The notes below the pieces were generated by a model, which searched no databases, was not told where the DNA came from, and saw nothing but the letters and a program-made list of their open reading frames with translations. A DNA stretch of 37,321 nt from Desulfobacterales bacterium (GTDB lineage Bacteria > Desulfobacterota > DSM-4660 > Desulfatiglandales > Desulfatiglandaceae), in the NCBI GenBank assembly GCA_021107495.1, contig JAIOSR010000244.1, positions 1 to 37,321 on the forward strand. Reading direction: 5' to 3'. Shown in pieces: positions 1-34,458 of this stretch. The first letter of the stretch is position 1. Every line of letters begins with the position of its first letter. A program made the translations under genes and the position numbers.

Positions 1-1
1 G

Positions 2-715
2 GCCGTGGGGAGTTTTGTAATAAAGCTCTTTGAGATCTCTATGGCCAGCGCAGGATTGAGCCTCGAAAGCGCAAAAAAAGAGGGCTTTGATGCTGTGAGT
101 GCCTTTGTGATCCAGTTTGACCGGGCCCATTTTTATCCTGAAAAGGACCTCATGTATTTGGAATTAGTTGTGGAAAAAGGAAGCGGACGTGTCCTGGGCA
201 TTCAGGGTTTAGGAAATACCGGGGAAGGCATGATGGGCAGAATCAGCGCGGTAGCCCCTCTTCTGAAATACAAAATCACGACAGAGGATATAAGCAATCT
301 GGAACTCCCCTATTCACCCCCGTTTTCATCGGCCATGGATATCCTGAATGCATTGGGCAACACGGCTGAAAATATCTTAGCAGGGAAAAACAGGGTTATC
401 GAAGCGGCCGAATTCTCTGATTGGTGGGAAAAGAGACACAAAGGAGACATGCTCTGCCTGGATTGTCGGGAATGGGGAAATGCGGGCCCCTTTGTTGAAA
501 AATACCCTGAGCACTGGAAGAGCATTCCGCAGGGCGAACTGAGAACCCGGTTGGCGGAAGTTCCCAAAGACAAGAAGCTTGTACTGATCTGCAATACGGG
601 TGTCCGCTCCTATGAGGCCCAGATAACCCTCGATCAGATGGGTATAAAGGATAGCTATAACCTTCAGGGTGGGATGGCCGCCGTCAAAAAATGGGGGGTT
701 GATCTGCTGGAATAG
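2..715 (+). CDS. Pyridine nucleotide-disulfide oxidoreductase (NADH oxidase / CoA-disulfide reductase family), C-terminal part with fused rhodanese domain; 5' end lies outside the window
   Basis: The frame is open to the window edge. Dimerisation-domain-like sequence (GIQGLGNTGEGMMGRISAVA, LELPYSPPFSSAMD) is followed by a rhodanese active-site loop, LVLICNTGVRSYEAQ. Confidence 0.75.
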   Translation, partial: AVGSFVIKLFEISMASAGLSLESAKKEGFDAVSAFVIQFDRAHFYPEKDLMYLELVVEKGSGRVLGIQGLGNTGEGMMGRISAVAPLLKYKITTEDISNLELPYSPPFSSAMDILNALGNTAENILAGKNRVIEAAEFSDWWEKRHKGDMLCLDCREWGNAGPFVEKYPEHWKSIPQGELRTRLAEVPKDKKLVLICNTGVRSYEAQITLDQMGIKDSYNLQGGMAAVKKWGVDLLE

Positions 716-1191
716 GCCTCCCGTCCCGACCCTGCCTTCGGAGGCGCAAATGGACTTCTTCGAAGCCCTTTAATGATAAAATAGTAATAATTAATTTGTA
801 TCAGGAGAACGGTTATTACTGCGAACACCCTGTTTGTCATTTCCTTGATGTATAAGTATATCGGGACTGAAGCCATTATGCCGCAGGCGCAACTGACCCA
901 TTCAGCTACCTTCAGACTATCTCCAAAAAGCAATTGCCCACACGCGATAAAAAAAGGATAAAGGGGAGGCAAAATTAGCCCGATATCGGCATAACTCCAA
1001 TTTGGAATGTAGAATTGCCCATTATAGAACAAATCTCTTCCCATGGTCATGTAAGCGACAGTATCTGGAGGAAATTGCCTGGGGCTGTAGTTAAAAAACT
1101 GGGTGACTGGGTTCAATCCAATTACCAAAAGCAAGCAAAGAAAATCTGGATACCAACGCTTGAGATCAGGATTCTTGATGGTAATTCTCAC
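664..1191 (-). pseudogene. Truncated N-terminal remnant of an ArnT/PMT-like GT-C membrane glycosyltransferase
   Basis: GTG-started ORF with AAGGAA upstream. The first ~130 aa are hydrophobic helices with a GT-C-like first loop (PPDTVAYMTMGRDLFYNGQF). The hydrophobic signal stops near 790, and the frame then runs through low-complexity sequence into the 3' end of the convergent gene (overlap 664-715). Intact family members are about 500 aa. Confidence 0.4.
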
Positions 1192-1541
1192 CTTAAATTC
1201 CTTAGCACAGAAAATTCATCATTTCTTTCAAAGGGTTATTTCAGAAAGCTAAAATTCTTCATGTCGTCACGCGCCAGCAGTTTCGAACTACGAGGCTGCC
1301 CCAGAATGTTTATGCTTGGCCAATTTTCCATAAAAGAATTCTGAAAATGATCTGAAATATACTGTGTCAAAACCAAATGTGAACGAAAACGAAATGATAA
1401 TGAAGCACGAAATGTTAGTAAAAACAACAGTATATAATTTATTATAAGTTGACGATACCCATACTCTGTGGTAATTATATGATTTTATCTTAACTGTAGA
1501 TTCGGAAGCTGCTATGCATCGGGATGTGAATAGGAGTCCAA

Positions 1542-2483
1542 TCACTCATCGGACTCGGATCTAACTTTCCTGCGCAACGTCCAAAAAGAAACTCCCAGTG
1601 CGTAGCTCGACGGACCTCCAAGAACAATGCTTGCAAGGATGTTCCCTGTACGGTTGACCAAAGGCACCAATAAGGCAGTTTCATAGGGAACACCCGACTG
1701 GGTAAGAAGCAGAATAATAGTCCCGTCGTAGGCCCCTAACCCCATTGGAATCATGGATATGAATCCGGCGAATATACTGATCATTGTAATAATGGCAAGT
1801 TGGAATAAATCAAGCTTCGTGTTTAGAGCCGCGAGGATAAAGCTATGGCGGCAGACGTAACCTGCAATATCAAAAAGTAAGCATATGATTGCCGAAAAAA
1901 CCACTTTATGGGTTAGCAGCCTCATATTGTCATGCAACATATTCAAAATATTCTGTAACTTGTGCCGAAGCAGGTAAGCGAGAAGCAAAAAAACCGGTAT
2001 TATCAACAGAAACAAAAGGACATATTGCGGGAAATCAATGCCGTAGGCCGGCAGGAAAATGAGGGCCGGGAGTCCCCACAACGAATAGTTCAATAGACCA
2101 TCTAAAGCCATGAAGGTTGTAACATTTAACAATGTTACCTTTAGTTGCGAGGTCAAGAGATACATTCTCACCGGCAGACCGAGTTTGGCGGGGAAGATAT
2201 AAGTGACAAGTGCAGTCACAGAAAAGATGCATAACAGCTTTTTGTATGGTGCCCGGTCTGGTCCTAACGGATTTCCCAAGTAAAAATACCAACGCACAGG
2301 TTCCACAAAAAAATGAAAAAGTGTAAAGAGGAAAGCAAGCCCGAGAGACGATAGTCTCATTTTGCGCAATAAGACCATGACATCGCTGCGAAAACCGGGA
2401 ATCATGTAGGCTTGGGCACCGATGAGAAGAACAGCAAAAACAAAGATCCAAATAAGCTTATTATTAATGAATCGGCTTTTCAT
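1542..2483 (-). CDS. Polytopic membrane protein of the LPG-synthase-TM / flippase-like family (UPF0104-type)
   Basis: 313 aa with about 8 hydrophobic helices. The motifs FPAKLGLPVRMYLL and SMIPMGLGAYDGTIILLL...LVNRTGN resemble the conserved P-x-G-x-G-x-x-E/D and Arg motifs of this family. Confidence 0.55.
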   Translation of the reverse strand: MKSRFINNKLIWIFVFAVLLIGAQAYMIPGFRSDVMVLLRKMRLSSLGLAFLFTLFHFFVEPVRWYFYLGNPLGPDRAPYKKLLCIFSVTALVTYIFPAKLGLPVRMYLLTSQLKVTLLNVTTFMALDGLLNYSLWGLPALIFLPAYGIDFPQYVLLFLLIIPVFLLLAYLLRHKLQNILNMLHDNMRLLTHKVVFSAIICLLFDIAGYVCRHSFILAALNTKLDLFQLAIITMISIFAGFISMIPMGLGAYDGTIILLLTQSGVPYETALLVPLVNRTGNILASIVLGGPSSYALGVSFWTLRRKVRSESDE

Positions 2484-2524
2484 GTAGGCCCTTAAAGGTT
2501 TTTTAGCTCAGAGATCCATTTACC

Positions 2525-3268
2525 ATGGAAAATTTGGAATCCAAACGCTACAAGGAATTTTACAGCCTTGAATCCCGACATTACCACGCCCTGCGCTATG
2601 AGACTCTCTACGGGCGTCTTTTTCAAAGCTTGCATCACTATGTCCTTCGCGAAGTGCTTGACCCCTTGACACGCCAGGCCAAGGTTTTGGAAGTGGCCTG
2701 CGGCACCGGCCATATAACAAAGCTCTTTGTCGACATGGGATTCCGGCCCGTGGCCTGCGATTTAACCCCGCAAATGATGCACCAGGCCCGCGCTCGTTGT
2801 CAAGGGCTTAGCCTTTTTTTGGAGACGGATGCCTTTCAATTGCCTTTTCCAAACGGAATTTTCGACGCCCTAATCTCCACCCGCTTTCTCCATTTGTTCC
2901 CTCATGAACAGCAACAGCTTCTATTCGTTGAGATGCTGCGTGTGCTAAGGCCGGGAGGATTGTTAGTTGTTGATTTCGACAATTTTTTCAGTCGCTGGCT
3001 TCTTGCGGTACCTTTCCTGATTTACAATTTGATTCGTTATCATCGTGTCGCCCCCGATAGCATATATAACCGGATAAAAGCAACCGAAAAAACATTGAAC
3101 AAATTGGGGGTTAACGAGACTTTATGTTACGGCATAGGTGGGACCCATTTAGTAGTGCCTTGCTGGTTTTCCCAAAATCTTGCTTTTTTCTTGGGGCTCA
3201 AACATCAACGTAAACCTCTTAGATGCCTGGCGGAGCAATTTATCATTTGTGGTAGAAAAGGCCCATGA
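2525..3268 (+). CDS. Class I SAM-dependent methyltransferase
   Basis: Motif I VLEVACGTGHITKLF, acidic post-I residue (VACDLTP), and LRPGGLLVVDFD. Its stop overlaps the next gene's start (ATGA at 3265-3268). Confidence 0.8.
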   Translation: MENLESKRYKEFYSLESRHYHALRYETLYGRLFQSLHHYVLREVLDPLTRQAKVLEVACGTGHITKLFVDMGFRPVACDLTPQMMHQARARCQGLSLFLETDAFQLPFPNGIFDALISTRFLHLFPHEQQQLLFVEMLRVLRPGGLLVVDFDNFFSRWLLAVPFLIYNLIRYHRVAPDSIYNRIKATEKTLNKLGVNETLCYGIGGTHLVVPCWFSQNLAFFLGLKHQRKPLRCLAEQFIICGRKGP

Positions 3269-4368
3269 AAATTTTATTGGTGGCACCTGAGATATGTAGC
3301 CCTTGGACAGAGGGCCGGAAGAGATTTGTGCGTGACCTTGGCTTTGCGTTAAGCAAGGAACATGATGTCATGCTCCTATGTACCAAGGCAAAGGGCCAGA
3401 CAACGGATTTCCCGGTACCTTACAAATCAGCGGAGCGTGGATGGGGTCCGTCTCATCTCATTTTCCTGCACAAGGCCATTGGGCCGATCATAAAAAATTT
3501 CAAGCCGCATCTTGTCTGTCATTTTCCTTATGCCACATTTCAACATATATATAAACCGGCCAACACCTGGACCATGTGGAATGTTGACAGATTATGCAGA
3601 AGACATTCGGTGCCTTGTTTTACTATAATGTATTCCATCAGCAAAGAAGCCACACCGGAAATGCTTAAACCATGGGTAAGCCACCTAGTGTTGAATCAAT
3701 TTTCTTCTGGATATGAGAAAAAGGTGCGTTTGGGCATCTGTTTTGACAACAAAATGCCGATTTTAGAGCACCGCAAGGACATACCAAGGCATCCAAAACT
3801 GCTATTTATGGCTGGCATGTGGCAACAGACCCGCAAACGATTAAAGTATGTCATTGAACGTCGTGGCCTATCTACTTTACTAAGAGCAGGTAAAAAATTG
3901 ACTGGAACAGGAACTCAGCTTATTGTTGCGGTCCCGCTCCTGAAAAATCCCAAATTAAGGAATCTGCTCTTGTGTGATCCCAATAATACCTGGCCGAGAG
4001 AATGCATCAAATTGACCGGAGAAGTAACTGTGCCGGATATTTTTAAAAGAGTTGACCTCTTTATTTTTCCCTATGCACGTGAAGAAAGCGTATTCATTCC
4101 AACGTCCGTCATAGAGTCTATGGCATGGGGAACACCTGTTGTTTTATCAGACCATGCCTTTTTGAGTAATTTAAGACAAGGTGGAAAAACCGCCTTAAGC
4201 TTTCCTCCTGGTGATTCGAATAAGCTGACGAGTATTATTGCTGACTTATTAAATGATACGGACAAATACAATACTCTCAGAGAGAACGGCATTCGCTATG
4301 TACGTGAGGAAATGAGCATAGAAGAATCGTGCAAAGATTTATTATCCCTTTATAAGCACCTGCTTTAA
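3265..4368 (+). CDS. Glycosyltransferase family 4 (GT-B fold)
   Basis: 367 aa. The N-terminus KILLVAPE and the C-terminal EX7E-type region FPYAREESVFIPTSVIESMAWGTPVVLSD fit the family. It is translationally coupled to the upstream methyltransferase. Confidence 0.8.
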   Translation: MKILLVAPEICSPWTEGRKRFVRDLGFALSKEHDVMLLCTKAKGQTTDFPVPYKSAERGWGPSHLIFLHKAIGPIIKNFKPHLVCHFPYATFQHIYKPANTWTMWNVDRLCRRHSVPCFTIMYSISKEATPEMLKPWVSHLVLNQFSSGYEKKVRLGICFDNKMPILEHRKDIPRHPKLLFMAGMWQQTRKRLKYVIERRGLSTLLRAGKKLTGTGTQLIVAVPLLKNPKLRNLLLCDPNNTWPRECIKLTGEVTVPDIFKRVDLFIFPYAREESVFIPTSVIESMAWGTPVVLSDHAFLSNLRQGGKTALSFPPGDSNKLTSIIADLLNDTDKYNTLRENGIRYVREEMSIEESCKDLLSLYKHLL

Positions 4369-4510
4369 AAGACGTCCAGATACTCTTGACTCAGACATGA
4401 TAAAACTTACCTCATGAAAGTTGGATCAACCCCATTTATCTGCGTCTCATTCATCCACCAAGTATGCGACAAGGCGATTATGAGGCCAAAAGGACCTTCT
4501 CAACATCTTT

Positions 4511-5596
4511 CTAAGCCTGGCGAATATGCTCACAAATACGTTCGATATCCTCATTAGGAAGAGTATCATAAAGCGGTAAGCAAAGAATCGAACGGGCTAC
4601 CCGTTCAGATACAGGTAATGAGTCTTGTGGTGCGAAAATGGGTACAGTGTTCAGGGAAGGGTAGAAGTATCTACGGGTATATATATTACCATCAATCAAA
4701 CGGTCCATTGCGCGTAACAAAAGCTCTTCGCTGTCAAAAAGAATCGGCATATAGCTATAGTTATACTCTTCCGCATCATATTTTTGAAATGTTATAAACT
4801 GCACCTCTGATAAGAGGTTTTGATAAAGCTCATATTTCTCCCGCCGGTTTCGTCTGACACGATCCAGCCACTTCAAATTGGCCAAACCAAGTCCGGCACT
4901 AACCTCCGTCATTTTGGCGTTCATGCCGGCATCTACGATATCTTTTCGTTCGTCAAATCCGAAAAACCGCATGCGTCGTATTCGTTCGGCCAGAAAGTCG
5001 TTATCGGTAACGCATGCGCCCCCTTCCGCCGTATTAAAAAGTTTAGTCGCGTGGAAGCTCATTGCAGAAATATCCCCATACTGCAATATCGACTTCCTGT
5101 CGACCTCAACTGCGATGGCATGGGCAGCATCATAGATTACTTTCAGACCATGTTTAGCGGCAATAGTTTGGATCAGGTCAACATCACAGGGAGCGCTGAA
5201 AACGTGAACAGGCAGAATAGCTGAAGTCTCATCTGTGATTTTTTCTTCAATCTTTTCTGGGTCGATATTCCAGGTATCAGGGTCTATATCAACAAAAACA
5301 GGTCGACAACGTTCCCAGGCGATAATATTGGCCGTCGCAATAAAAGTGAAAGGGGTTGTTATTACCTCACCCGTTATATCTGTGGCACGAATAGCCAACT
5401 GAAGGGCACAGGTTCCGTTAGAGACACACACTACGTGCTTAACTTTGAGATAAGTGCTTAACTCCTTTTCAAGCCTCTGAACCATGGGACCATGGTGGGT
5501 CATTACACCTGTTTCCCAGATAGTGTTTAGATAGGTCACATATTGCTCAAGCGGAGCAAGTGACGGTTTGGTTACATAAATAGAGGGACTCGTCAT
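4511..5596 (-). CDS. DegT/DnrJ/EryC1/StrS-family PLP-dependent NDP-sugar aminotransferase
   Basis: 361 aa with the PLP-lysine motif SAMSFHATKLFNTAEGG and family-typical VSNGTCALQLA and DAAHA segments. An ATGA overlap (5593-5596) joins it to the upstream oxidoreductase. Confidence 0.9.
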   Translation of the reverse strand: MTSPSIYVTKPSLAPLEQYVTYLNTIWETGVMTHHGPMVQRLEKELSTYLKVKHVVCVSNGTCALQLAIRATDITGEVITTPFTFIATANIIAWERCRPVFVDIDPDTWNIDPEKIEEKITDETSAILPVHVFSAPCDVDLIQTIAAKHGLKVIYDAAHAIAVEVDRKSILQYGDISAMSFHATKLFNTAEGGACVTDNDFLAERIRRMRFFGFDERKDIVDAGMNAKMTEVSAGLGLANLKWLDRVRRNRREKYELYQNLLSEVQFITFQKYDAEEYNYSYMPILFDSEELLLRAMDRLIDGNIYTRRYFYPSLNTVPIFAPQDSLPVSERVARSILCLPLYDTLPNEDIERICEHIRQA

Positions 5597-6558
5597 ACAT
5601 TTTCCTTTCTAATGGCATCCAGGAGCTTAGCCTGGGAAATTAGGGAATCCCAGTGCACTTGGAAATCCTCTCCGTTTATCACCGTCCTTGCAAAAAAGCG
5701 GCACATGTTTACGTAGTGATTATCGGCGGCAAGTGTAAACTCCTGTTTCAGGTCTTGATGCTCCAGGCGTATCGTGGGCCTAAACCCTGGTGCGGCAGTG
5801 AAGGCCCGCTCAACCACAAGCTTACCTTTCGTGCCAAGAAATTCGTAGTTACACTGGTAGTAATAGTTAAACCCAAAAGAAACCTGGGCCACCTGTTCCA
5901 TTTTGTTTGTCAACATGGCATCGCCATAAATATCCACACCGAGGTCATCATCGTACTTCAATTTCGCTCCCAGTACCCTCAGGTCGGAGCCCAGGAAAAG
6001 TTGGGAAGCTTTGACCACATAAGCGCCTGCATCAAGAAGGGCCCCGCCCCCTAAGTGCCTATCATAACGAAAATTGTTCCCAGGCAAGGGTGGAAAACCA
6101 AAAGTACACCGAAGCAGGTGAATGTCACCTAACTCACCCCTTGCAATCAGATCGTTCACCCACGCGTGCTGTAAATGATGTGGGAACAAAAAATTTTCCA
6201 GTACCAACATTTTTTTTTCACGGGCTAGGTCAACCATGGCGCGAGCTGATCGAATATTTTCGGCAAAAGACTTCTCGACCAGGATATGCTTTCCAGCCTC
6301 CAGCGTCTTGATCACCCATTCTTCATGCAGACCTGTGGGCAGAGGCATGTAAATTGCGTCGATAGAGTCGCAACCAAGAAGTTTTTCATAACCTACAAAA
6401 GCATCGCATTTGAAGCGTTCGGCAAATTTTCGCGCCTTTTCTTCGGTACGACTGGCTATTGCGACCGGACAAACATCTTCGCATTCCATCATTGCGGGAA
6501 GCATTGCGCGCCACGCGATATCGGCACAACCCATTACACCAATTCGCAATTTGTTCAT
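5593..6558 (-). CDS. Gfo/Idh/MocA-family NAD(P)-dependent oxidoreductase, candidate NDP-hexose ketoreductase
   Basis: 321 aa with an N-terminal Rossmann motif (LRIGVMGCADIAWRA) and the conserved ILVEKSF segment. It sits between the 2,3-dehydratase and the aminotransferase. Confidence 0.85.
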   Translation of the reverse strand: MNKLRIGVMGCADIAWRAMLPAMMECEDVCPVAIASRTEEKARKFAERFKCDAFVGYEKLLGCDSIDAIYMPLPTGLHEEWVIKTLEAGKHILVEKSFAENIRSARAMVDLAREKKMLVLENFLFPHHLQHAWVNDLIARGELGDIHLLRCTFGFPPLPGNNFRYDRHLGGGALLDAGAYVVKASQLFLGSDLRVLGAKLKYDDDLGVDIYGDAMLTNKMEQVAQVSFGFNYYYQCNYEFLGTKGKLVVERAFTAAPGFRPTIRLEHQDLKQEFTLAADNHYVNMCRFFARTVINGEDFQVHWDSLISQAKLLDAIRKENV

Positions 6559-6587
6559 TCTGACACAATCCTCTACAGCGATATATT

Positions 6588-8054
6588 CTACAGAAAGCCA
6601 AAACAGGACAACAAACAGCGGCCTTCAACATTGAAAAAATTATTGTATCTGATAAAATTTTTGATTTGGCCCATCGTCATCCAGATGTAGTTATCAGGGA
6701 CTTTTAGAGGGAAATCATCCCCCAGTTCAATCAGCATATTCTTATTCTCTTCCTGAAAGAAACGCCCCCCTTCCTCAGATTGAAAGGTTGAAAAATGAAC
6801 TCGCTCAGGTGGGACGTTTGAAACGTATTCCAGGAATGGGGGAAGGTTTTCGGACTTTTCATCTTTATAATTCCCCGTAACACACTGAACCGTCGGTGCC
6901 ATTTCGACCACGTCGAAATTGCCTGCTTCGACTTTTGCCTGTACAAGAAAGTGCAAAACGCCACTAATATTCCGCACTAAATAGGCTACAATCCCGTCCT
7001 CCTGAGGCTTCACCAATGGTTGCGTCCAGTTCAGCACTTCTCGATTATCAGTCTGAACCGCCACAGCGATGACTGTGAAATATTTCCCTTTATCATGGTG
7101 AATCTGGTAATCGGTTTTGTGCCAGTTTTTCACGAACTTGAGGGGTATACACTCCGCATTCAATTCATAACGGACTTTGAGCTCTGTAAACCAACTAATA
7201 ATCGTATCCGAATCGTAGACGCCCTCATTCGTGGCTAAGGCAGAGTTAAAAAGCTTCAGTTGGAATTCATCAAAATCACAATTGACGGCACTTGCATCCA
7301 CAGTACCCATATTTTTAACGGTAGGGAGTAAATCTGACACTCCCATGCCTTGCAGCTCGGGTGCCGCAAATTGAATACAGGACAAAACAGTCCTGGAATC
7401 CATGTTAATAATGTGATCATATTGGATCAACTTGTATATCTGACCTAATGTGAGCCAGCAATAGTCGTCCAGGACCTGCACCTCCTTAGAAGTTTCTATG
7501 ATGATGTTCCTGTTCCGTTTTCTCAGGAAACGGGCTCCCTGCTCCGATTGAAGTGAATCAACAAGTATGGTTGAGTCGGACTTGTCCAAAAAATACTCTA
7601 AGTATGGCGGTGTTCCTCCTCTGTGGACGCGGGTATAATTGCTGCGGGTGGCCTGTAACGTTGGTGCAAGTTGCACCAAATGGATGTTGCCCGGCTCCAT
7701 CTTGGCCTGCATGAGGAAATAAAGAATACCATCAAACTTCTTGGCGAGTATTCCCAATATGCCTATTTCCGGCTGGTTCATAATGGGCTGCGACCATTGG
7801 GATACCCTTCCTACATTGGTCTCTACCCAGATCCCTTCAATGGAAAAGAACTTTCCGGTTGAGTGAATGAGATTTCCTGTTGATGGCTCAAAAGACCATT
7901 CTTCTAAATCTTTAAATGGAATCTGCTCAATGCGGAACTTATGGGTCTGCCGGCGGGATAAAAACCAGTCCATAAAATTCTCAGTCTTCATGAACGGATT
8001 ATGTTCTGTAAGCGCCGATACCAAAAAATTCAATTCTTTAGAATTCATTTTCAC
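6588..8054 (-). CDS. NDP-hexose 2,3-dehydratase (EvaA/TylX3-like, two tandem hexose-dehydratase domains)
   Basis: An internal duplication is visible in the protein. The N-half has LYFLMQAKMEPGN...EQGARFLRKRNRNIIIE...YCWLTLGQI. The C-half has LHFLVQAKVEAGN...EEGGRFFQEENKNMLIEL...YIWMTMGQI. The ORF starts at GTG 8054; ATG 8048, with AGGGA 7 nt upstream, is the likelier start. Confidence 0.85.
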   Translation of the reverse strand: MKMNSKELNFLVSALTEHNPFMKTENFMDWFLSRRQTHKFRIEQIPFKDLEEWSFEPSTGNLIHSTGKFFSIEGIWVETNVGRVSQWSQPIMNQPEIGILGILAKKFDGILYFLMQAKMEPGNIHLVQLAPTLQATRSNYTRVHRGGTPPYLEYFLDKSDSTILVDSLQSEQGARFLRKRNRNIIIETSKEVQVLDDYCWLTLGQIYKLIQYDHIINMDSRTVLSCIQFAAPELQGMGVSDLLPTVKNMGTVDASAVNCDFDEFQLKLFNSALATNEGVYDSDTIISWFTELKVRYELNAECIPLKFVKNWHKTDYQIHHDKGKYFTVIAVAVQTDNREVLNWTQPLVKPQEDGIVAYLVRNISGVLHFLVQAKVEAGNFDVVEMAPTVQCVTGNYKDEKSENLPPFLEYVSNVPPERVHFSTFQSEEGGRFFQEENKNMLIELGDDFPLKVPDNYIWMTMGQIKNFIRYNNFFNVEGRCLLSCFGFL

Positions 8055-8202
8055 ATCCCTAATTGTTCAAATGACATCATGTCGTACCATTCAAATGAGG
8101 GTGCCTTTTTTTAGTCGGCTTGATTATCTTTATGTGAGAAGGTTAAAATACTCAGTAAGCACATCCCTTATCTTGTTGAAGTTTGGTCCCGGGCAAATAA
8201 AA

Positions 8203-9462
8203 TTAGTGATCACTGCCTTCCTTTATCAATCTGTTATGCCAAGATAAACTGGAAGAAAACTTATCCGTTAAATACTTTTGCCATTTCTTTAGTTCGGCAT
8301 TTGTAAAATGCTTTGTATTCCAGTAAGGATTTGAATATTCGTCGGCAAAGGTCCAATCATAACTCTTCATCGTCGACGGTTCATAAAAGTCACAACCGGG
8401 ATATGGACATAGGATGGTAATTCCAAAGATGTCAGGCTGAATTTCATCTACCAGTTTTTCTGTCAACCTGATGTCTTCAACTGTTTCATTGGGCATTCCT
8501 AAGAGAAAATAACTTCTTCTCTCAATTCCTATCTCCCTACACCATTGAAACACTTTTTTGATTTTTTCGACAACAACGCCTTTCCTTATGTCATTTAGAA
8601 TTTTCTGACTACCGCTTTCACAGCCCACATTGATCTGAATGCACCCGGCCGCCTTCATGGCCTTGAGCATTTCCTTGTTCGCAAAAGCGGCATGCACATT
8701 CGCTTCCCATGCCAAGTCAACTTTCTGTCGAATTTTCTCTTCACAAAAAGCAATCACCTTTTCCGTAGAAGTATTCCACGTGGCATCTGCAAACTTGAAA
8801 TAATCCAACGAATATTTACGAGCAAGCCACCTGATCTCCTCAAGGAGGTGTTTGGGGTCTCGTACACGCAGAGGGTTGGTCTTTGGATCGAAAACACCTG
8901 TAACCTTCCTCTCAGCACAAAATGCGCAACGGAACGGACAGACCCTAACGCTTTGTAAACTTGTGATCCTCTTGCCTATCAGCTCTTGGCACAAGTCCAC
9001 AGTTCTATCATTTTTGATCAGATCTCTATCGGGGAAAATATCTTCAAACTCAGCAAATTTGTCTCCGTAGATAATGGGTGAGGTATCACCGGCAAGTATC
9101 TTAAGAAAACCTTCTTCGCCTTCCCCAACGATCACCTGATCAACAGCCTCTTCCTCCAGGCAGTCATTTGGTACTGCCGTAGGGTGAAACCCGCCAAAAA
9201 CGGTTCTCACCTCAGGGTTGATCGCCTTTATTGCGTTTGTGAGTTTTACGGCTGGCCTAAAAACCGGCGAAGTACAAGAAAAAGCCACAATATCAGAAGT
9301 CTTTCCATCCTCTATGATAGTACTATCGCTATCAAAGTAGCCTTGATAAAAACTCATCCTCAGTTTTCCTGGGAACTTCTTCTTTGCATAAGCTCCGATA
9401 TAGGCCAAGCCCAATGCCTCCCAGATATTGAAGTAATAGGGTTGAACAAAAGTAATTTTCAT
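8203..9462 (-). CDS. B12-binding-domain radical SAM enzyme (class B type)
   Basis: 419 aa with the CxxxCxxC cluster motif VRVCPFRCAFCAERK. This is preceded by an N-terminal region of about 130 aa typical of cobalamin-binding radical SAM proteins (RTVFGGFHPTAVP). Confidence 0.85.
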   Translation of the reverse strand: MKITFVQPYYFNIWEALGLAYIGAYAKKKFPGKLRMSFYQGYFDSDSTIIEDGKTSDIVAFSCTSPVFRPAVKLTNAIKAINPEVRTVFGGFHPTAVPNDCLEEEAVDQVIVGEGEEGFLKILAGDTSPIIYGDKFAEFEDIFPDRDLIKNDRTVDLCQELIGKRITSLQSVRVCPFRCAFCAERKVTGVFDPKTNPLRVRDPKHLLEEIRWLARKYSLDYFKFADATWNTSTEKVIAFCEEKIRQKVDLAWEANVHAAFANKEMLKAMKAAGCIQINVGCESGSQKILNDIRKGVVVEKIKKVFQWCREIGIERRSYFLLGMPNETVEDIRLTEKLVDEIQPDIFGITILCPYPGCDFYEPSTMKSYDWTFADEYSNPYWNTKHFTNAELKKWQKYLTDKFSSSLSWHNRLIKEGSDH

Positions 9463-9746
9463 TTTATTTCTTCCTTCATGACAAAAAGTTATCCTAAAAG
9501 CTTTTATAATTCTTTGAATTTAAAGAATCAACATTTTTTCTCTAAATTTGCTTTTGCCAAAATACACCTTTATCTCAAAATCACCTATCAACCACTGGCT
9601 TTTATTTTGCAATAGATAGAAAAAAGCCATGTGTGCTTCTCGTTTTCAAATACAAATCAGTCGAGTCGTGCTGCCATAGATAATAGGAAGGCACTGACCA
9701 ATCAATATCGCGCTTGCATTGTCAAATTGTATATGCTAATCACTCT

Positions 9747-9775
9747 TTTATTTGTTCGCAGAGATTTGTTATAAT
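9747..9775 (+). promoter_or_regulatory. Candidate sigma-70 promoter with extended -10 (TGTTATAAT) for the GT4 gene
   Basis: TATAAT at 9770-9775 is preceded by TGT at 9767-9769. A weak -35 (TTTATT) lies at 9747-9752, giving a 17-nt spacer. The site sits in the AT-rich 431-nt divergent spacer. Confidence 0.3.
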
Positions 9776-9893
9776 CATAAAAATATATCGTCCGTATAAT
9801 AAGGAAGACGCTTTTAAGTCAAGATCACGGCATTACCTCTGCAATTCTTTCTAATTCTCTACTGAGCAACAGCTGGCCAATATCTAAGATATT

Positions 9894-11033
9894 ATGCAAA
9901 ACAGAAAACGGATACTCTTAATAACAAGTTCCTATCCTGCCTTCACAAAAGACACCCGAGCTTCGGCCGGTATGTTTGTTAAAGACTTTGCCCATGAATT
10001 GGCGAAAAAAACCAAATTAGTTGTCCTTACTCAGCATACTGGTCGAGGCCCGGTAATACTTCATGAATCCAATTTTCAAGTGATCCGGTTTCAATGGTCG
10101 GGCAGAGATAAAGCCCTTTCAACATTCCGGTTTCCAAGAGATCTTTTTTTAATGTCATCGGTAATTATTCGGGGGTTTTTTGCTTCTCTAAAAATCGCAA
10201 AAGGGCATAAGTTTCATCATACTCTCGCACTTTGGGCAATTCCTTCCGGCTTATGGGCTCTCTTTCTTAAATGGATCTATAGTATCCCGTATACGGTCTG
10301 GTGCCTTGGAGCTGATATCTGGGACTATAAAAAAAATCCCATCACAAGATGGTTGCTCCGTTTGATTCTCAGGCAAGCGCAAAGTATCTATGCGGACGGA
10401 CATAAGTTGAAGGAGGATGTCCGGTCGCTTTGCGGAAAAAAGTGTGATTATTTGGCATCATCACGCCGGCTCCCTAATCACGTGTCTGTGAAGGCAGATA
10501 TACGGCAAGACAAAAAAAATTATTTATTTATAGGTCGATATCATCCTAACAAGGGGCCGGATATATTGCTTCAAGCCATTGCAAGACTAAATCCTTTAAT
10601 CCGAGAAAAAGCGCACTTCCATCTTTTCGGCGGTGGCGCACTTCGACCAATTTTAGAAGAATTCATAAGCTCACAATATCTTTCCGATGTTGTCACATTG
10701 CATGGTTACATTGATGAAGAATTAGCCACTGCTTATTTGAGAGCATGCGATGCAGTGATTATCCCTTCTCGAAAAGATACAATATCCCTTGTTGTTTCAG
10801 ACGCTTTACAAACCGGAACCCCTATCATAGCTTCCGATGCAGGAGATATGGGATATTTCCTGAAAAAATATAACGCCGGCACGGTTGTACCTTCTAATTG
10901 TCCGGAAGAACTGGCCAAAGCCATTGAGTCTAATGTTCCTAAAAAAAGGAAAATTTCAGCAGGGCAAGCCGACCTGATGAAACTTCTGGATATTTCAAAA
11001 AGCGCTGGACGATTCTTTTCAGATCAACTCTGA
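9894..11033 (+). CDS. Glycosyltransferase family 4 (GT-B fold)
   Basis: 379 aa. The N-terminus RILLITSSYP and the C-terminal donor-binding region VIIPSRKDTISLVVSDALQTGTPIIASD fit the family. Confidence 0.8.
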   Translation: MQNRKRILLITSSYPAFTKDTRASAGMFVKDFAHELAKKTKLVVLTQHTGRGPVILHESNFQVIRFQWSGRDKALSTFRFPRDLFLMSSVIIRGFFASLKIAKGHKFHHTLALWAIPSGLWALFLKWIYSIPYTVWCLGADIWDYKKNPITRWLLRLILRQAQSIYADGHKLKEDVRSLCGKKCDYLASSRRLPNHVSVKADIRQDKKNYLFIGRYHPNKGPDILLQAIARLNPLIREKAHFHLFGGGALRPILEEFISSQYLSDVVTLHGYIDEELATAYLRACDAVIIPSRKDTISLVVSDALQTGTPIIASDAGDMGYFLKKYNAGTVVPSNCPEELAKAIESNVPKKRKISAGQADLMKLLDISKSAGRFFSDQL

Positions 11034-11036
11034 TTT

Positions 11037-11051
11037 CCTTGCTAAGCAAGG
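11037..11051 (+). terminator. Short hairpin just after the GT4 stop (weak terminator candidate between convergent genes)
   Basis: CCTTGC-TAA-GCAAGG forms a 6-bp stem with a 3-nt loop, 4 nt after the TGA. It is followed by a pyrimidine-rich tract, not a clean U-run. Confidence 0.25.
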
Positions 11052-11210
11052 CCTTACTTCTCTTCCACATTACAAACACATCTGAGTCTTAAAACTTTTT
11101 ACCCATGAGATCAAAGGTCTCTTAATTGGTCAGGGTGCCACTTTATATAGAGTGACAAACAAAGTCAGAGCCTTCCGTGGATAGGAAGAAAAAAGGTCAT
11201 AGAAAGATAT

Positions 11211-12095
11211 CTAAAACAACTTATCGCCCTCGCTTCTTTCAAATCTCATAAGACAAATCTGTTCAGAGATAAGACCCATCATAAAAACAATAATAGAGGT
11301 GGTAAAAAGGAGCGCACTCATATTGGTAAAGCGATCCCACATAAAAAAAGTGTATAGGTAGTAGGATAATCCTAAAACAAACATAAAAAAACTTACAGGA
11401 AGAAATATCCTCAACGGAGAATAAAGGGCACATATTTTGGTAATAATCATAAAAAATTTCAATCCATCCCTGAATATCTTGATTTTGCTTTTCCCCATAT
11501 TTCGTTTGCGCGTATTGATAGGGATATATTTCAGACTTTTCCCACTCCTTAAAACACCTAGCGTTAATGTAGTGGGGTAAGAGTATGTATTGGGAAGAAG
11601 GTATAAAAGGTTATGAGCAATCTCAGATTTTATTGCCCGAAAGCCTGAGGTAAGGTCCTGAACAGAGAATTTTGCAACGTATGAGGCCAACCAATTAAAT
11701 ATCCTGTTGCCCACTGCCCGACCCCATGAGGCTTGGTGTCCTTTTGGCCTCGCACCAACGACCATGTCGTTATCTGGAAATTCTTCAATAAATTTCTTAA
11801 TTTCCTCTGGCTCATGCTGACCATCCCCATCCATGAACACCAGGATATCACCCGACGCTATCCTTATACCACTTTTTATAGCCGCGCCATTGCCGATATT
11901 ATTGGGATGAGTGTATACAATAGCTCCTGCATCTTTCGCGACCTGGCCCGTATCATCTGTTGAACCGTCATTAATAACGATTATCTCGAAATCAGGATAA
12001 AGGCTTCTGGTTTTTCCTACAATATCGCCAATCGTCTGAGCTTCATTGTAGACTGGGATAATTATTGAAACTTCCGTTTTATCCATTTTTTGCAA
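11211..12095 (-). CDS. GT2 polyprenyl-phosphate glycosyltransferase (DPM1/GtrB-like) with C-terminal TM helices
   Basis: VSIIIPVYNEAQ, INDGSTDDT and the DxD-type FMDGDGQH are present, with hydrophobic C-terminal helices. It uses a TTG start at 12095 with GAGGAG 5 nt upstream. Confidence 0.85.
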   Translation of the reverse strand: MQKMDKTEVSIIIPVYNEAQTIGDIVGKTRSLYPDFEIIVINDGSTDDTGQVAKDAGAIVYTHPNNIGNGAAIKSGIRIASGDILVFMDGDGQHEPEEIKKFIEEFPDNDMVVGARPKGHQASWGRAVGNRIFNWLASYVAKFSVQDLTSGFRAIKSEIAHNLLYLLPNTYSYPTTLTLGVLRSGKSLKYIPINTRKRNMGKSKIKIFRDGLKFFMIITKICALYSPLRIFLPVSFFMFVLGLSYYLYTFFMWDRFTNMSALLFTTSIIVFMMGLISEQICLMRFERSEGDKLF

Positions 12096-12250
12096 TAAAG
12101 CTCCTCAAAATATAGTATAAAAAATGCTTATACAAATGCTATTTTAATTCTATATGTCAATATGGTCACAAAGTTTTTAAGAATAATCCCCTCAAAGTCA
12201 CATTTTTTATCAGGATCTACATCTTTATAGTATTCAAGAAAAAAATTTTG

Positions 12251-12314
12251 GACGCAGATAGAGGCTGATGTTCAGGATTTTTTATCTGCGGCTATCCGAA
12301 TAAATCTGTGTGCC
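12251..12314. repeat. ATCTGCG-type palindromic intergenic repeat
   Basis: CGCAGATA (12253-12260) is inverted to TATCTGCG (12283-12290), and a degenerate third copy AAATCTGTGTGCC lies at 12302-12314. A related TATCTGCGTC occurs near 4449 in another spacer. Confidence 0.35.
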
Positions 12315-12453
12315 CAAAAAAACTATCTTTATTTCTTATCTTAAGGGCGTTGACTTCTTCCATGATTCACTCTCCTTCTATCTCATCTTATATCTTAGAG
12401 TAAATCGATTTAGTGCACATGTCAAATGTATATGGGTGTATACACATCAGGAG

Positions 12454-14127
12454 TTATGAGGAAATATAATTAATCTGGGATACCCCATATCCCCACTTAA
12501 AAAATAGCATTCTACAGTATCTTAGCATAAATTGATTTAATATATATAGCTTTTTATCATTAAAAATATCCTTTTTCCATTTGTCAAAAAGGTCATAACG
12601 GATGAGCAAATGGTTAATTCCCATGTTTTTTAGTTCAGACAAGATTTGCTCAGGGGAATCCGATCTCTTCACAATCTTATAAAGTGAACCATTGTCTAAT
12701 TGGTACTCTTTGTCACAATAGTATCCCCGTTTACCTATGAAAACGAATAATATTTTGGCATCGTGGGGAAGATTTCTGTTAATGTATCTCATGACAGGGT
12801 ATTCAAACCGGTATTTGTCAATATACTCATCACGAGAAACACTACCGTTCAAGAATCCAAATGGGTCAACCTCCTTGAATTGCCCGTAAATATATAGGCC
12901 ATTGATCCCAAGGGCAACAGCCACTAATCCAAAAACAAGAGCCGTGGCTACCCGCCTCCAATTCTGAGAATGAATTTCCCCCACCTTCTGGAACATCTGC
13001 CTGATCCCGAAGACAGACAGAATCACCAGAGGGGGAATGATGGGCGAGATATACCGCACCCTCACGACCTGGCTGAAAAAGGCGAAACCCAAAAAAAGGA
13101 CAGAAAACGCCAAGAGTATCATTTTTTCATTCCTGATGGAGGCAGGGCCCTCCCGTACTCTGAAAAAGGCAAGGAACGGCAGGAATAGAAGGAAAGGATT
13201 TAGCTTTCCGTCAAAATATTGAGGGTTTCCATCCTTGCCTTGAAAAAAGATACGGGCCGGCAAGAGCATTAGCTGCCACCACTTTTCATTATAAATAATG
13301 CTCCTATAGGTAAAAAGACCATGACTCTGCTTCTTAATGCCGTCCTGGGCAATGGCCTTTGTTGTCAGCTCTTTGGGAGGGTTAAACCAATTATCATAAA
13401 GTGGATAAATTGGGTTGTTTTTCCATTTGTAATTCCTTATCATCCAAGGTGAAAAAATCAGGAGGGCAATGAAGAAGAAAACTAAGCCCTGTCCGGCAGA
13501 CCTGAAAAAATCGGGGCTTCTGCCCTGGTTGTATCTTGAGTGCAAAAAGGGCACAAAAAGGGTTAACAGGAAAAAAGTAACCAGGCCATTGTATTTTGTC
13601 CCCATTGCCAGACCGCAGAGCACAGCGGAAAAAACAAGGGTTCTCATACGAAAACCATTTTTCATCCAACTTAAAAGTAAAAAAAGGGATGCGGTCGAAA
13701 AAAATATAAGACCAAGATCAACATAAACGGTGATGGAAAGCTTTACTATGATAGGGATTGAAAAGAAAAAAAGCGCTCCAATCAGGCCATATATGGTGCT
13801 GATGCGGCGCTTCAAATAGTCGAAAATGAGCCATCCCGTGAGCAGAGCGAAAAAGAAGTGGATAAATTTAGGGATGATGTCGTTCCCGTAATGAAGGGGA
13901 ATTAAATACAAAAGATCCAGGTTCATGGGGTTATATGAAAACGGCATGAATGGAATCTCATACATACCTCCATTATCGAGATACAGCTTGGGGACGGCCA
14001 AGTGATGAACAAGGGCATCTTTACTTACTGGAGGGACAATAGACAAAATAACAATAGAGACAAATAAAACCGCCAAAATGCCCAGCAGGAAAATTTTCAT
14101 GAAAGATATGTCAGTTTTTTCAGCCAT
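12454..14127 (-). CDS. ArnT/PMT-like GT-C membrane glycosyltransferase (GT39/GT83-type)
   Basis: 557 aa and polytopic. The first periplasmic-loop acidic motif (VSKDALVHHLAVPKLY) and the GTKYNGL segment fit the family, and the soluble C-terminal part is of the expected size. Confidence 0.7.
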   Translation of the reverse strand: MAEKTDISFMKIFLLGILAVLFVSIVILSIVPPVSKDALVHHLAVPKLYLDNGGMYEIPFMPFSYNPMNLDLLYLIPLHYGNDIIPKFIHFFFALLTGWLIFDYLKRRISTIYGLIGALFFFSIPIIVKLSITVYVDLGLIFFSTASLFLLLSWMKNGFRMRTLVFSAVLCGLAMGTKYNGLVTFFLLTLFVPFLHSRYNQGRSPDFFRSAGQGLVFFFIALLIFSPWMIRNYKWKNNPIYPLYDNWFNPPKELTTKAIAQDGIKKQSHGLFTYRSIIYNEKWWQLMLLPARIFFQGKDGNPQYFDGKLNPFLLFLPFLAFFRVREGPASIRNEKMILLAFSVLFLGFAFFSQVVRVRYISPIIPPLVILSVFGIRQMFQKVGEIHSQNWRRVATALVFGLVAVALGINGLYIYGQFKEVDPFGFLNGSVSRDEYIDKYRFEYPVMRYINRNLPHDAKILFVFIGKRGYYCDKEYQLDNGSLYKIVKRSDSPEQILSELKNMGINHLLIRYDLFDKWKKDIFNDKKLYILNQFMLRYCRMLFFKWGYGVSQINYISS

Positions 14128-16237: not shown

Positions 16238-16341
16238 GCCCGTTCCAACCCTCCCATTGAAGGAAGAGGGAATTCTGGTATCGTGTCGTAAGATATGGAA
16301 TTTTTGCTTAACAATTTGCTGACCTACTGAGTTCCCTGCCC

Positions 16342-25707: not shown

Positions 25708-26633
25708 TCCTTTGTCCCTCCCATTAACAGATACATTACCGCCATGCGCACGGCGACCCCGTTGGTCACCTGGTCAAGGATGACCGATTGGGGTCCGTCT
25801 GCAACATCATCGGTTATTTCCACGCCACGGTTTATAGGACCGGGATGCATCACGATCGCATCTTTTTTTGCCTGTTTCAGGACTTCCCGGTTTAGCCCAA
25901 AAAAAACGGCGTATTCTCTGAGACCCGGGAACAGGGCCTTGCCTTGTCTTTCCAACTGGATCCGAAGCATCATAACCACATCTTTCTCTTTGACCGCTTC
26001 TGCCGGGTCATGAACCACCTGGACGCCGAAATCTTCGATGCCTGGCGGTATCATGGTGGGAGGCCCGGAAACCGTTACCTCGGCCCCCATTTTGGTTAAT
26101 CCTATGATATCGGATCTGGCTACTCGGCTGTGGGAAATATCTCCTGTAATGACGACCTTCAATCCCTCGATCTTTCCCTTTTTTTCCCTGATCGTAAACA
26201 AATCGAGCAAGGCCTGGGTCGGATGCTCGTTTATCCCATCACCCGCATTTATAACACATGCTTTTACCTCTCTCGCCAAAAGTTGAGGTGCACCGCTTGA
26301 AGAATGCCTGAGAACAATAAGATCAGGGTTCATGGCCTGAATATTCCGGGCAGTGTCAATAAGCGTTTCCCCTTTCACCATGCTGCTTGTTGAAACAGAT
26401 AGGCTGACGGTATCCGCACTCAGCCTCTTTGCCGCCATTTCAAAAGAGGTGCGGGTCCTGGTACTTGGTTCGTAAAAAAAATTAACCACGCTCTTGCCCC
26501 TCAGGGTGGGGACCTTTTTAATATCCCTTTCAGAAATTTCTTTTAAGGATTCAGCAGTATCCAGGATCAATTGTATGTCCCTGACGGACAATTGCCCCAT
26601 TCCAAACAGGTCTTTATGGCCGAATTTACTCAC
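25704..26633 (-). CDS. pyrB: Aspartate carbamoyltransferase catalytic subunit
   Basis: STRTR motif ([11 protein letters not shown]), HPTQ motif ([10 protein letters not shown]) and HPGP ([10 protein letters not shown]) are present. GTG 26633 has AAGGAG 6 nt upstream. The track ORF's extra 15 codons start at a TTG inside a terminator hairpin. Confidence 0.92.
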
Positions 26634-26647
26634 CTGAAGCTCCTTGC

Positions 26648-26685: not shown

Positions 26686-26754
26686 CTTGTTGTTCCGACT
26701 GTATCCCATCATAGTCCAAGTATGTTTGTTGAGATTAATAACCGTTTCATTTAG

Positions 26755-26784: not shown

Positions 26785-26793
26785 CCCTCACTT

Positions 26794-34450: not shown

Positions 34451-34458
34451 ACTTCTTT

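Follow-up and report, generated by a model that had tools for sequence, protein, structure and literature searches.

A B12-binding radical SAM enzyme and a sugar aminotransferase as a candidate tailoring module next to a 2,3-dehydratase amino-sugar cassette in a Desulfobacterales glycan island

We analyzed a stretch of 37,321 nucleotides from a Desulfobacterales bacterium (contig JAIOSR010000244.1 of assembly GCA_021107495.1; hereafter the window), specifically focusing on an operon on its minus strand (positions 4511–9462) that combines a radical S-adenosylmethionine (SAM) enzyme with three enzymes of nucleoside diphosphate (NDP)-sugar biosynthesis. A first-pass annotation had proposed this set of four genes from the DNA sequence alone, and all four open reading frames (ORFs) are present where it had placed them:

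8203–9462, minus strand: B12-binding radical SAM enzyme, 419 amino acids (Pfam B12-binding and Radical_SAM domains, CxxxCxxC motif)
8049–8202, minus strand: spacer from the radical SAM gene to the dehydratase gene, 148–154 bp, its size set by the start codon chosen
6588–8048, minus strand: EvaA-type NDP-4-keto-6-deoxyhexose 2,3-dehydratase, two-domain and Nudix-like, 486 amino acids (two Hexose_dehydrat domains, EvaA match)
5593–6558, minus strand: KijD10-type NDP-3,4-diketo-2,6-dideoxyhexose 3-ketoreductase of the Gfo/Idh/MocA family, 321 amino acids (Pfam, KijD10 match)
4511–5596, minus strand: pyridoxal phosphate-dependent DegT sugar aminotransferase, predicted to be C4-specific, 361 amino acids (Pfam, DesI match)

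The last two genes share the ATGA overlap that had been claimed for them, in which the stop codon of the reductase gene meets the start codon of the aminotransferase gene (aat gtA TGA cg), and a gap of 29 bp separates the dehydratase gene from the reductase gene. The dehydratase had been given as a protein of 488 amino acids: its ORF stands, while its start is likelier the ATG at 8048 (486 amino acids) than the GTG at 8054. This ATG sits 7 nt past an AGGGA, and a length of 486 amino acids is also found in the gene calls of relatives and in the closest homologues. When the GTG at 8054 is taken as the start, the gap to the radical SAM gene amounts to 148 bp; a gap of similar size is retained in two relatives of 90–91% identity (loci L003 and L010). 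A promoter and terminator scan of positions 4300–9950 returned no more sites than shuffled sequence and informs on the operon only via this gap, which contains no terminator-like site or hairpin. Neither an Rfam search at gathering thresholds nor a tRNA scan gave a match anywhere in the window, and Rfam detected no cobalamin riboswitch in the 431 bp ahead of the radical SAM gene.

The three enzymes encoded downstream of the radical SAM gene match their expected families throughout. The dehydratase comprises two Hexose_dehydrat domains (Pfam PF03559) that score 517.5 bits (gathering score 25), and EvaA (4j7g) is its sole match among solved structures, with 435 bits over the two domains. Its AKMEPGN and QSEQG segments line up with E139 and E190 of EvaA, and both glutamates, which lie in pocket A and have been named catalytic or essential (PMC8987622), are conserved. 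EvaA-type dehydratases require a pre-existing 4-keto-6-deoxy substrate (PMC8987622); the enzyme of the window is predicted to convert NDP-4-keto-6-deoxyhexose into NDP-3,4-diketo-2,6-dideoxyhexose. The reductase matches both the N-terminal and the C-terminal (C3) GFO_IDH_MocA domains in Pfam. Against the PDB it aligns over residues 2–317 with KijD10 (3rbv, "sugar 3-ketoreductase") at 280 bits, compared to 131 bits for the runner-up, and it keeps the lysine of the EK(P/S) motif (veKsf in the query, aeKpl in KijD10) as well as the tyrosine of GGGALLD..Y (gaYvv and gvYpi, respectively). We take these residues to be the catalytic Lys102 and Tyr186 of KijD10, an enzyme type that also includes OleW, SpnN, and VinE. 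The aminotransferase, finally, scores 331.9 bits against DegT_DnrJ_EryC1 (PF01041). DesI (2po3) leads its PDB matches with 218 bits, followed by the C3 enzymes QdtB, NtdA, and WbpE with 142–147 bits, and DesI (TIGR04427, dTDP-4-keto-6-deoxyglucose 4-aminotransferase) also ranks first in NCBIfam, where the score of 302 bits fails the equivalog cut-off of 650 bits. The Schiff-base lysine is present in the motif SFHATK; a histidine at this site would mark dehydratases. Judged by the EvaA and KijD10 matches and by this lysine, the trio of 2,3-dehydratase, 3-ketoreductase, and aminotransferase that the first-pass annotation had described is real and catalytically intact.

The order of reactions would then be as follows: NDP-4-keto-6-deoxyhexose, produced elsewhere in the genome, would feed the trio, the dehydratase would take off the C2 hydroxyl, the reductase would convert the new C3 ketone, and the aminotransferase would put the amine on the remaining C4 ketone. 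The product is very probably an NDP-4-amino-2,4,6-trideoxyhexose with the core of vicenisamine, whose regio- and stereochemistry we infer. If the stereochemistry of KijD10 and DesI, as we presume it to be, carries over, the configuration would be D-arabino. A nucleotidyltransferase and a 4,6-dehydratase of the RmlA/RmlB type had been expected to lie outside the window, and none was found among the window ORFs scanned. Amination had been left at "C3 or C4". Here, C4 stands and C3 does not: the reductase is co-conserved with the aminotransferase, and DesI is the best match in both the PDB and NCBIfam. Score ranking and pathway logic thus make C4 the most likely position, since the translationally coupled 3-ketoreductase takes away the C3 ketone.

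The operon had been called actinomycete-style, and its sugars uncommon in Gram-negative bacteria. This holds only for the characterized enzymes: every characterized pathway with a 2,3-dehydratase belongs to an antibiotic cluster of actinomycetes (PMC8987622), while orthologous trios occur in environmental Gram-negative glycan loci. The homologue search with the dehydratase returned at least 7993 matches, and the closest 120 homologues, which are 53–88% identical, include a few that carry names, namely Hydrogenedentes, Nitrospirae, and the cultured Kiritimatiellota species Pontiella sulfatireligans. Surface-polysaccharide loci of Hydrogenedentes, Nitrospirae, Kiritimatiellota, and other groups contain orthologous trios. 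In Pontiella (L038), the genes for dehydratase, reductase, and DegT aminotransferase (56, 57, and 67% identical to those of the window) are followed by Hexapep, family 2 glycosyltransferase (GT2), GtrA, and PMT_2 genes within a polysaccharide cluster rich in Wzx and family 4 glycosyltransferases (GT4). In a metagenome-assembled genome (MAG; L040), the trio (62, 64, and 70% identity, respectively) lies amid methyltransferases, an ABC transporter, GT4s, and Wzz. Neither of these two trio loci contains the radical SAM gene. Because the trios of L038 and L040 thus occur without it in polysaccharide loci, the trio is an autonomous and widespread cassette of environmental Gram-negative glycan loci, and its association with antibiotics mirrors what was studied. 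We found no paper on this cassette when searching the literature for 2,3-dehydratases in O-antigen loci. A secondary-metabolite cluster was considered as the setting of the operon and ruled out: the window is devoid of polyketide synthase and non-ribosomal peptide synthetase genes, the neighbours are glycosyltransferases, and pyrB, pyrC, rpoA, secY, and ribosomal protein genes lie alongside.

The radical SAM protein has the domain composition that the first-pass annotation had suggested, which is that of class B (cobalamin-dependent) radical SAM enzymes. Its B12-type N-terminal domain scores 54.6 bits against Pfam B12-binding (PF02310; gathering score 32.1), its core scores 81.4 bits against Radical_SAM (gathering score 29.5), and the cluster motif VRVCPFRCAFCAE is of the form CxxxCxxC (C175, C179, C182) and invariant in the family. 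Beyond this level, all NCBIfam matches remain well under the respective family cut-offs: HpnJ scores 138.3 bits (cut-off 577.6), BchE 133.7 (481), the MgmA-type family TIGR04014 74.6 (360), and AprD4 69.8 (500), while a ladderane enzyme scores 103 bits. No DesII-named model is among the 24 NCBIfam families that match at E ≤ 1e-5. Searching the PDB with the single sequence and then with a profile yielded AprD4 (6fd2; 58 and 76 bits), confined to the radical SAM core and the C-terminus, MgmA (9ccb; 40 and 72 bits), and the B12 domain of TokK (35 and 46 bits). An AlphaFold 2 model with a predicted local distance difference test (pLDDT) score of 92.5 gave a similar ranking in Foldseek, with AprD4 (TMq 0.76) and MgmA (0.71) ahead of TsrM, TokK, CysS, and OxsB. 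As AprD4 and MgmA are nearly equal, the model and Foldseek do not tell a methylase from a non-methylase; cobalamin binding and methyl transfer are predicted activities. Compared to these distant matches, the family itself is tightly knit: the best 120 clusters of the homologue search all share 52% identity or more with the query along its full length, carry no functional names, and are nearly all metagenomic. An alignment of 15 members has a mean column identity of 66% and about 100 invariant positions, many of them in the N-terminal domain (QPxYxNxWE, SCTSP, FGGxHxxA, GEGE). We found no paper on this family or on the pairing of a B12-radical SAM enzyme with a DegT aminotransferase in glycan clusters.

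Its genomic context was examined by scanning one genome per species, which yielded 28 loci, all from MAGs, in at least 15 phyla. The loci were searched by matching six-frame ORFs to the window proteins, gene calls were also read, and counts refer to the 25 non-redundant loci. The hosts comprise Deltaproteobacteria, Nitrospina, Elusimicrobia, Victivallales, Lentisphaeria, Pseudobdellovibrionaceae, Binatia, Rokubacteria, Sedimentisphaerales, Planctomycetales, Nitrospirota, Calditrichaeota, Deferribacteres, Desulfobacterales, Desulfuromonadales, Eremiobacterota, a Shapirobacterium of the candidate phyla radiation (CPR), and one archaeon of the Asgard group Promethearchaeota; the nearest locus, at 91%, is that of MAG Meg19_1012_Bin_18 (L010). 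In 20 of the 25 loci, the gene directly beside the radical SAM gene on the same strand encodes a DegT aminotransferase; in three more (the window lineage and two Nitrospina) a DegT gene shares an operon with it, and in the last two one lies within 2 kb. In the three loci for which gene calls were read, the two genes overlap or are 0–10 bp apart, and the catalytic lysine is retained in all 25 partner DegTs; a role of these partners as pyridoxamine phosphate-dependent 3-dehydrases of the E1, ColD, or SpnQ type was ruled out on this basis. In at least 10 loci, the next gene after that for the radical SAM enzyme encodes an ArnC/PgfS-like GT2, and the other neighbours are GT4, family 8 glycosyltransferase (GT8), and class I methyltransferase genes. 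The dehydratase and the reductase accompany it in five lineages only. The partner that the radical SAM enzyme keeps from locus to locus is the aminotransferase, usually joined by an ArnC-like GT2, and not the 2,3-dehydratase.

Where the complete set does occur, it comes in four gene orders: radical SAM–dehydratase–reductase–aminotransferase, radical SAM–GT2–dehydratase–reductase–aminotransferase, dehydratase–reductase–aminotransferase–radical SAM, and aminotransferase–radical SAM–GT2–dehydratase–reductase. These span the window lineage, Nitrospina, Sedimentisphaerales, and "Eubacteriales". The recurrence of the same four genes in four different orders is strong evidence that the radical SAM enzyme works together with the sugar operon, as the first-pass annotation had assumed. 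The partner DegTs fall into three clades: those of the window type score about 450–710 bits against the window DegT, DesI-like ones of about 420 amino acids score 165–292 bits against it and 295–336 bits against NCBIfam DesI, and a divergent type with SFSFTK or SLSATK motifs scores 30–68 bits. A minimal locus, from Elusimicrobia (L005), reads YfhO–GT4–DegT–radical SAM–GT2 plus a methyltransferase, and contains neither an extra reductase nor a second aminotransferase.

Three further observations concern the wider family. A Promethearchaeota MAG (L031, 700-kb contig, positions 8503–12100) contains a radical SAM gene of 54% identity that forms a divergent pair with a gene for a DesI-like DegT (295 bits against the DesI model) and is followed by a GT8-like gene, which could reflect inter-domain transfer or contamination of the bin. 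In two Desulfuromonadales loci (L008 and L009, positions 1–12700), the DegT–radical SAM pair occurs with MptE-like, CTP_transf_3 (CMP-sugar synthetase type), Gfo/Idh/MocA, Ldh_2, and FkbM-type methyltransferase genes; as this context is nonulosonic acid-like, the family is not confined to hexose pathways. One or two further radical SAM genes, one of them encoding a SPASM domain, are present in each of the loci L007 (3977–5002 and 6747–8210), L021 (1287–2189 and 20082–21239), and L034 (11577–13067), and radical chemistry may be common in the glycan tailoring of these uncultured, mostly anaerobic lineages.

On balance, we favour an explanation in which the operon unites two separable modules of a chromosomal surface-glycan sugar-nucleotide pathway, the trio being the first. 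In the second, the radical SAM enzyme would act with the aminotransferase to tailor an NDP-4-amino-6-deoxy sugar. The coupling of these two enzymes, as judged from synteny, and the add-on nature of the module are probable: the radical SAM enzyme is read as an add-on because the orthologous trio is complete without its gene. In Pontiella (L038), moreover, an N-acetyltransferase gene follows the aminotransferase gene at the place where the Sedimentisphaerales locus (L021) has the radical SAM gene. Since minimal loci such as L005 contain no extra reductase or aminotransferase, the product of the radical SAM enzyme would have to be usable directly as a donor. As to the reaction itself, we tentatively put first a radical C-methylation that depends on cobalamin and takes place on the sugar ring or on the C6 methyl group. 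C-methylation appears most parsimonious because the B12-binding domain is canonical and because there is precedent for sugar C-methylation by cobalamin radical SAM enzymes, namely by GenK, GenD1, Fms7, and MoeK5 (PMC9204698). It may also be, with slightly less than even confidence on our part, that this family of about 420 amino acids catalyzes a reaction new for sugar nucleotides in primary glycan biosynthesis and thereby yields an undescribed class of surface amino sugars in uncultured lineages. In concert with whichever DegT is present, the enzyme might C-methylate NDP-4-amino-4,6-dideoxyhexoses with the help of cobalamin or rearrange them by radical chemistry, which in the window would add to the C2 deoxygenation.

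Several points weigh against this explanation. The top NCBIfam matches of the radical SAM protein, HpnJ and BchE, are non-methylases (PMC9204698), and AprD4, which leads its structural matches, dehydrates sugar diols without cobalamin (PMC12931638). The best 120 clusters and the 28 loci include no characterized or cultured family member. As the partner DegTs belong to three very different clades, yet the radical SAM enzyme remains more than 50% identical throughout, no substrate feature common to all pairs is apparent. Moreover, the 148-bp gap leaves room for separate transcription of the radical SAM gene, and rmlA and rmlB are missing from the scanned window ORFs.

The strongest alternative, a serious one although we rate it as less likely than methylation, is that the radical SAM enzyme is a non-methylase and performs an elimination or rearrangement of the amino sugar of the DesI/DesII or AprD4 type. 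A 4-amino-3-hydroxy sugar might be deaminated to a 3-keto-4-deoxy sugar, C3 might be deoxygenated to give a forosamine-type tetradeoxy sugar, or the ring might be contracted in an HpnJ-like manner. DesI is the top match of the partner aminotransferases in two clades, A and B (295–336 bits), but no DesII-named model is among the 24 NCBIfam matches of the radical SAM protein. Moreover, the keto sugar formed by a DesII-type enzyme would need a further reductase or aminotransferase: the window has a single DegT, and a DesII-type keto product is disfavoured because L005 encodes neither a reductase nor a second aminotransferase. AprD4, a diol dehydratase of aminosugar rings, is the best PDB match in both sequence and fold; this likeness is, however, limited to the radical SAM core and the C-terminus, and AprD4 works without cobalamin although a B12-like domain is present (PMC12931638), whereas in the family described here the B12-binding domain is canonical and many of its residues are invariant. 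For HpnJ, the best NCBIfam match, a ring contraction on a glucosaminyl hopanoid has been proposed (PMC9204698).

An improbable alternative reverses the order of the two partners: the radical SAM enzyme would act ahead of the aminotransferase and make its keto group in the manner of BtrN/BtrS or AprD4, so that the pair would constitute a module for converting a hydroxyl into an amine. This would suit the constant adjacency of the DegT–radical SAM pair whatever the DegT clade, as well as the surrounding loci, which mostly lack a 4,6-dehydratase. However, the trio in the window, in Pontiella, and in L040 already provides a C4 ketone, and no radical SAM enzyme is needed to complete it. We also know of no radical SAM alcohol dehydrogenase that uses a B12 domain. 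Furthermore, the EvaA-type dehydratase itself depends on an existing 4-keto-6-deoxy substrate (PMC8987622).

Less probable again is an alternative that concerns the aminotransferase: acting like EvaB, KijD2, or DnrJ at C3 of the 3,4-diketo intermediate, it would give a 3-amino-2,3,6-trideoxy sugar and leave the Gfo/Idh/MocA protein with another role. QdtB, WbpE, and NtdA are indeed clear homologues at about 142–147 bits; DesI, a C4 enzyme, nevertheless scores well above every one of the C3 enzymes. The 280-bit match of the reductase to KijD10 extends from end to end, and its gene is co-conserved and translationally coupled with the aminotransferase gene in the window, L003, L011/L012, L021, L038, and L040. 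To our knowledge, C3-aminating pathways do not include a 3-ketoreductase step for that sugar after 2,3-dehydration. It is hardly credible, finally, that the radical SAM gene is a mere neighbour with its own transcript and an unrelated lipid, protein, or cofactor substrate, as the 148-bp gap ahead of the dehydratase gene might suggest: this gap is free of terminator-like sites, a DegT gene lies within 3.5 kb in all 25 loci and directly adjacent on the same strand in 20, and all other neighbours are GT2, GT4, GT8, or methyltransferase genes.

Having weighed these alternatives, we return to the two-module pathway and to the destination of its sugar. An adjacent glycosylation island had been postulated, and Pfam and NCBIfam matches of the neighbouring genes place the operon inside one:

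1542–2483, minus strand: MprF-type flippase-like membrane protein, candidate lipid-linked-sugar flippase (LPG_synthase_TM, 62 bits)
2525–3268, plus strand: class I methyltransferase (Pfam), convergent with the operon
3265–4368, plus strand: GT4 glycosyltransferase (Pfam), convergent with the operon
9894–11033, plus strand: GT4 glycosyltransferase (Pfam/NCBIfam), divergent from the radical SAM gene
11211–12095, minus strand: AglJ/PpgS/ArnC-like GT2 (Pfam/NCBIfam)
12454–14127, minus strand: PMT_2 membrane glycosyltransferase of the GT-C type (Pfam)
14078–16237, plus strand: YfhO membrane glycosyltransferase of the GT-C type (Pfam)
16342–17955, plus strand: GT87 membrane glycosyltransferase of the GT-C type (Pfam)
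18029–18799, plus strand: class I SAM methyltransferase (Pfam Methyltransf_23/11)
18796–19761, plus strand: ArnC/PgfS-like GT2, 321 amino acids from the ATG at 18796, candidate polyprenyl-phosphate transferase (NCBIfam)
19971–22157, plus strand: 728-amino-acid protein with C-terminal tetratricopeptide (TPR) repeats (Pfam TPR families)

The GT2 at 18796–19761 scores 212 bits against NCBIfam PgfS and 158 bits against ArnC, both under the equivalog cut-offs. It is translationally coupled to the preceding methyltransferase by an ATGA overlap, and its start lies at 18796, 210 nt downstream of the start in the mechanical ORF list. A polyprenyl-phosphate GT2 and a GT-C transferase thus occur together in this locus. 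The MprF-like protein scores 40.7 bits against TIGR00374 ("flippase-like domain"), slightly under the cut-off of 43.2; it is conserved in L003 and is the sole flippase candidate, as no GtrA-type flippase was found in the window. By its predicted gene content, the island is of the type of polyprenyl-phosphate-linked extracytoplasmic glycosylation known from the Arn, Gtr, and CsbB–YfhO systems. The sugar may be N-methylated by an island class I methyltransferase, the ArnC/PgfS-like GT2 would load it onto polyprenyl phosphate, the lipid-linked sugar would be flipped through the membrane, and a GT-C enzyme (PMT_2, YfhO, or GT87) would pass it to an extracytoplasmic acceptor. We infer these post-synthesis steps from family membership and synteny. 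With regard to N-methylation, a PDB search for a likeness of two island methyltransferases to sugar N,N-dimethyltransferases gave generic class I methyltransferases only. The acceptor could be lipid A or lipopolysaccharide (LPS), a protein, or another glycopolymer.

Parts of the island recur in other genomes. The GT4 (9894–11033) and the GT2 (11211–12095) are conserved beside the radical SAM gene in L001–L004 and L010, the pair of methyltransferase and GT4 (2525–4368) holds the same place in L003, and a YfhO homologue also flanks the DegT–radical SAM–GT2 module in the Elusimicrobia locus L005. Homologues of the TPR protein, the N-terminal part of which (about 450 amino acids) has no Pfam match, adjoin the radical SAM gene in Nitrospina (L011 and L012) and PMT_2 in L010. 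On the opposite strand after the TPR gene, a type IV pilin-like gene with an N_methyl motif is located at 22186–22566, and the TPR and pilin-like genes may take part in the glycosylation of proteins or pilin.

The island is mosaic among the relatives L003 and L010 of 90–91% identity. Its edge in L003 carries a Polbeta/HepT toxin–antitoxin pair and a DDE transposase (4305–5248 and 16293–17003), and in L010, where the TPR gene adjoins PMT_2, the block of YfhO, GT87, methyltransferase, and GT2 found in the window is absent. The guanine-plus-cytosine content is low in part of the window island (0.35 at 12–13 kb). Downstream of the MprF-like gene, two minus-strand ORFs (664–1191 and 1288–1545) resemble a disrupted GT-C glycosyltransferase gene; the 175-amino-acid product of the former matches only the first approximately 65 positions of PMT_2, and its gene overlaps the 3′ end of the plus-strand ORF at 5–715. 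The ORF at 5–715 is the 3′ part of a gene cut by the window start and encodes the dimerization domain of a pyridine-nucleotide-disulphide oxidoreductase and a rhodanese domain, similar to CoA-disulfide reductase. On the other side, positions 23064–37180 carry housekeeping genes, and hence the glycan island abuts a ribosomal protein gene cluster: a sigma-54-dependent response regulator, a dihydroorotase-like gene (pyrC), and an aspartate carbamoyltransferase gene (pyrB) are found there together with a minus-strand cluster of rplQ, rpoA, rpsD, rpsK, secY, and on to rplP.

The sugar pathway itself is thus of a known type, while the module of B12-radical SAM enzyme and aminotransferase represents an uncharacterized, widespread variant. 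Because the cassette appears to feed surface glycosylation by way of undecaprenyl phosphate and GT-C enzymes both here and in Pontiella, 2-deoxy amino sugars are probably real but overlooked parts of Gram-negative envelopes. The radical SAM enzyme defines a large, highly conserved family strictly coupled to sugar aminotransferases and is a target for new radical chemistry on nucleotide sugars; as its proposed substrate is obtainable enzymatically, the question is directly testable. If the family does catalyze a reaction new for sugar nucleotides, an undescribed class of cell-surface amino sugars would be in use in uncultured bacteria of at least 15 phyla, including CPR, and in at least one Asgard archaeon.

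Among known systems, DesI and DesII resemble the module, which likewise couples a radical SAM enzyme with a DesI-like aminotransferase. They differ from it in that no DesII model is matched and no conserved downstream enzyme would handle the keto product; moreover, the window aminotransferase would act on a 2-deoxy version of the substrate of DesI. A B12 domain is absent from DesII. AprD4 is the nearest relative by sequence and fold (TMq 0.76) but is cobalamin-free and matches in the core and the C-terminus, and HpnJ leads in NCBIfam but with 138 bits against a cut-off of 577 and with a hopanoid glycoside as its substrate. GenK, GenD1, Fms7, MoeK5, and Fom3 share the architecture of a B12-binding and a radical SAM domain and act on sugar or nucleotide-linked substrates, the latter in the case of Fom3 (PMC9204698). 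In contrast to the window enzyme they belong to natural-product pathways, and the similarity is at the superfamily level, with none near an NCBIfam cut-off. TokK, TsrM, and CysS are longer than the window protein of about 420 amino acids.

For the trio, the closest parallel is the biosynthesis of thymidine diphosphate (dTDP)-vicenisamine in Streptomyces by the 2,3-dehydratase VinD, the 3-ketoreductase VinE, and the aminotransferase VinF, in which the same three enzyme families act in the same chemical order on a 4-keto-6-deoxyhexose to give a 4-amino-2,4,6-trideoxyhexose (PMC11284099). The kedarosamine and N-demethylforosamine pathways are relatives of this route. The island class I methyltransferases could fill the role of the N-methyltransferase VinG, although none of them specifically matches known sugar N-methyltransferases. 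Unlike the vicenisamine genes, those of the window lie in the glycan island of a deltaproteobacterial MAG and not in a polyketide cluster, have no counterparts of VinA and VinB (RmlA and RmlB) nearby, and include an additional B12-radical SAM enzyme. The transfer route also differs, apparently proceeding via a polyprenyl-phosphate GT2 and GT-C enzymes instead of a family 1 glycosyltransferase (GT1) acting on an aglycone.

This route has its counterpart in the three-component systems ArnB/ArnC/ArnT, which attaches 4-amino-4-deoxy-L-arabinose (Ara4N) to lipid A, GtrA/GtrB/GtrX, and CsbB/GtcA/YfhO. The window departs from them in its predicted trideoxy-amino hexose, in its several GT-C enzymes and two GT2s, and in having the MprF-like protein as the only candidate in place of a GtrA- or ArnE/F-type flippase. 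It resembles them in combining a DegT aminotransferase with an ArnC/PgfS-like GT2 and with PMT_2 and YfhO, and the Pontiella locus, in which the trio is followed by Hexapep, GT2, GtrA, and PMT_2, presents this arrangement in its textbook form.

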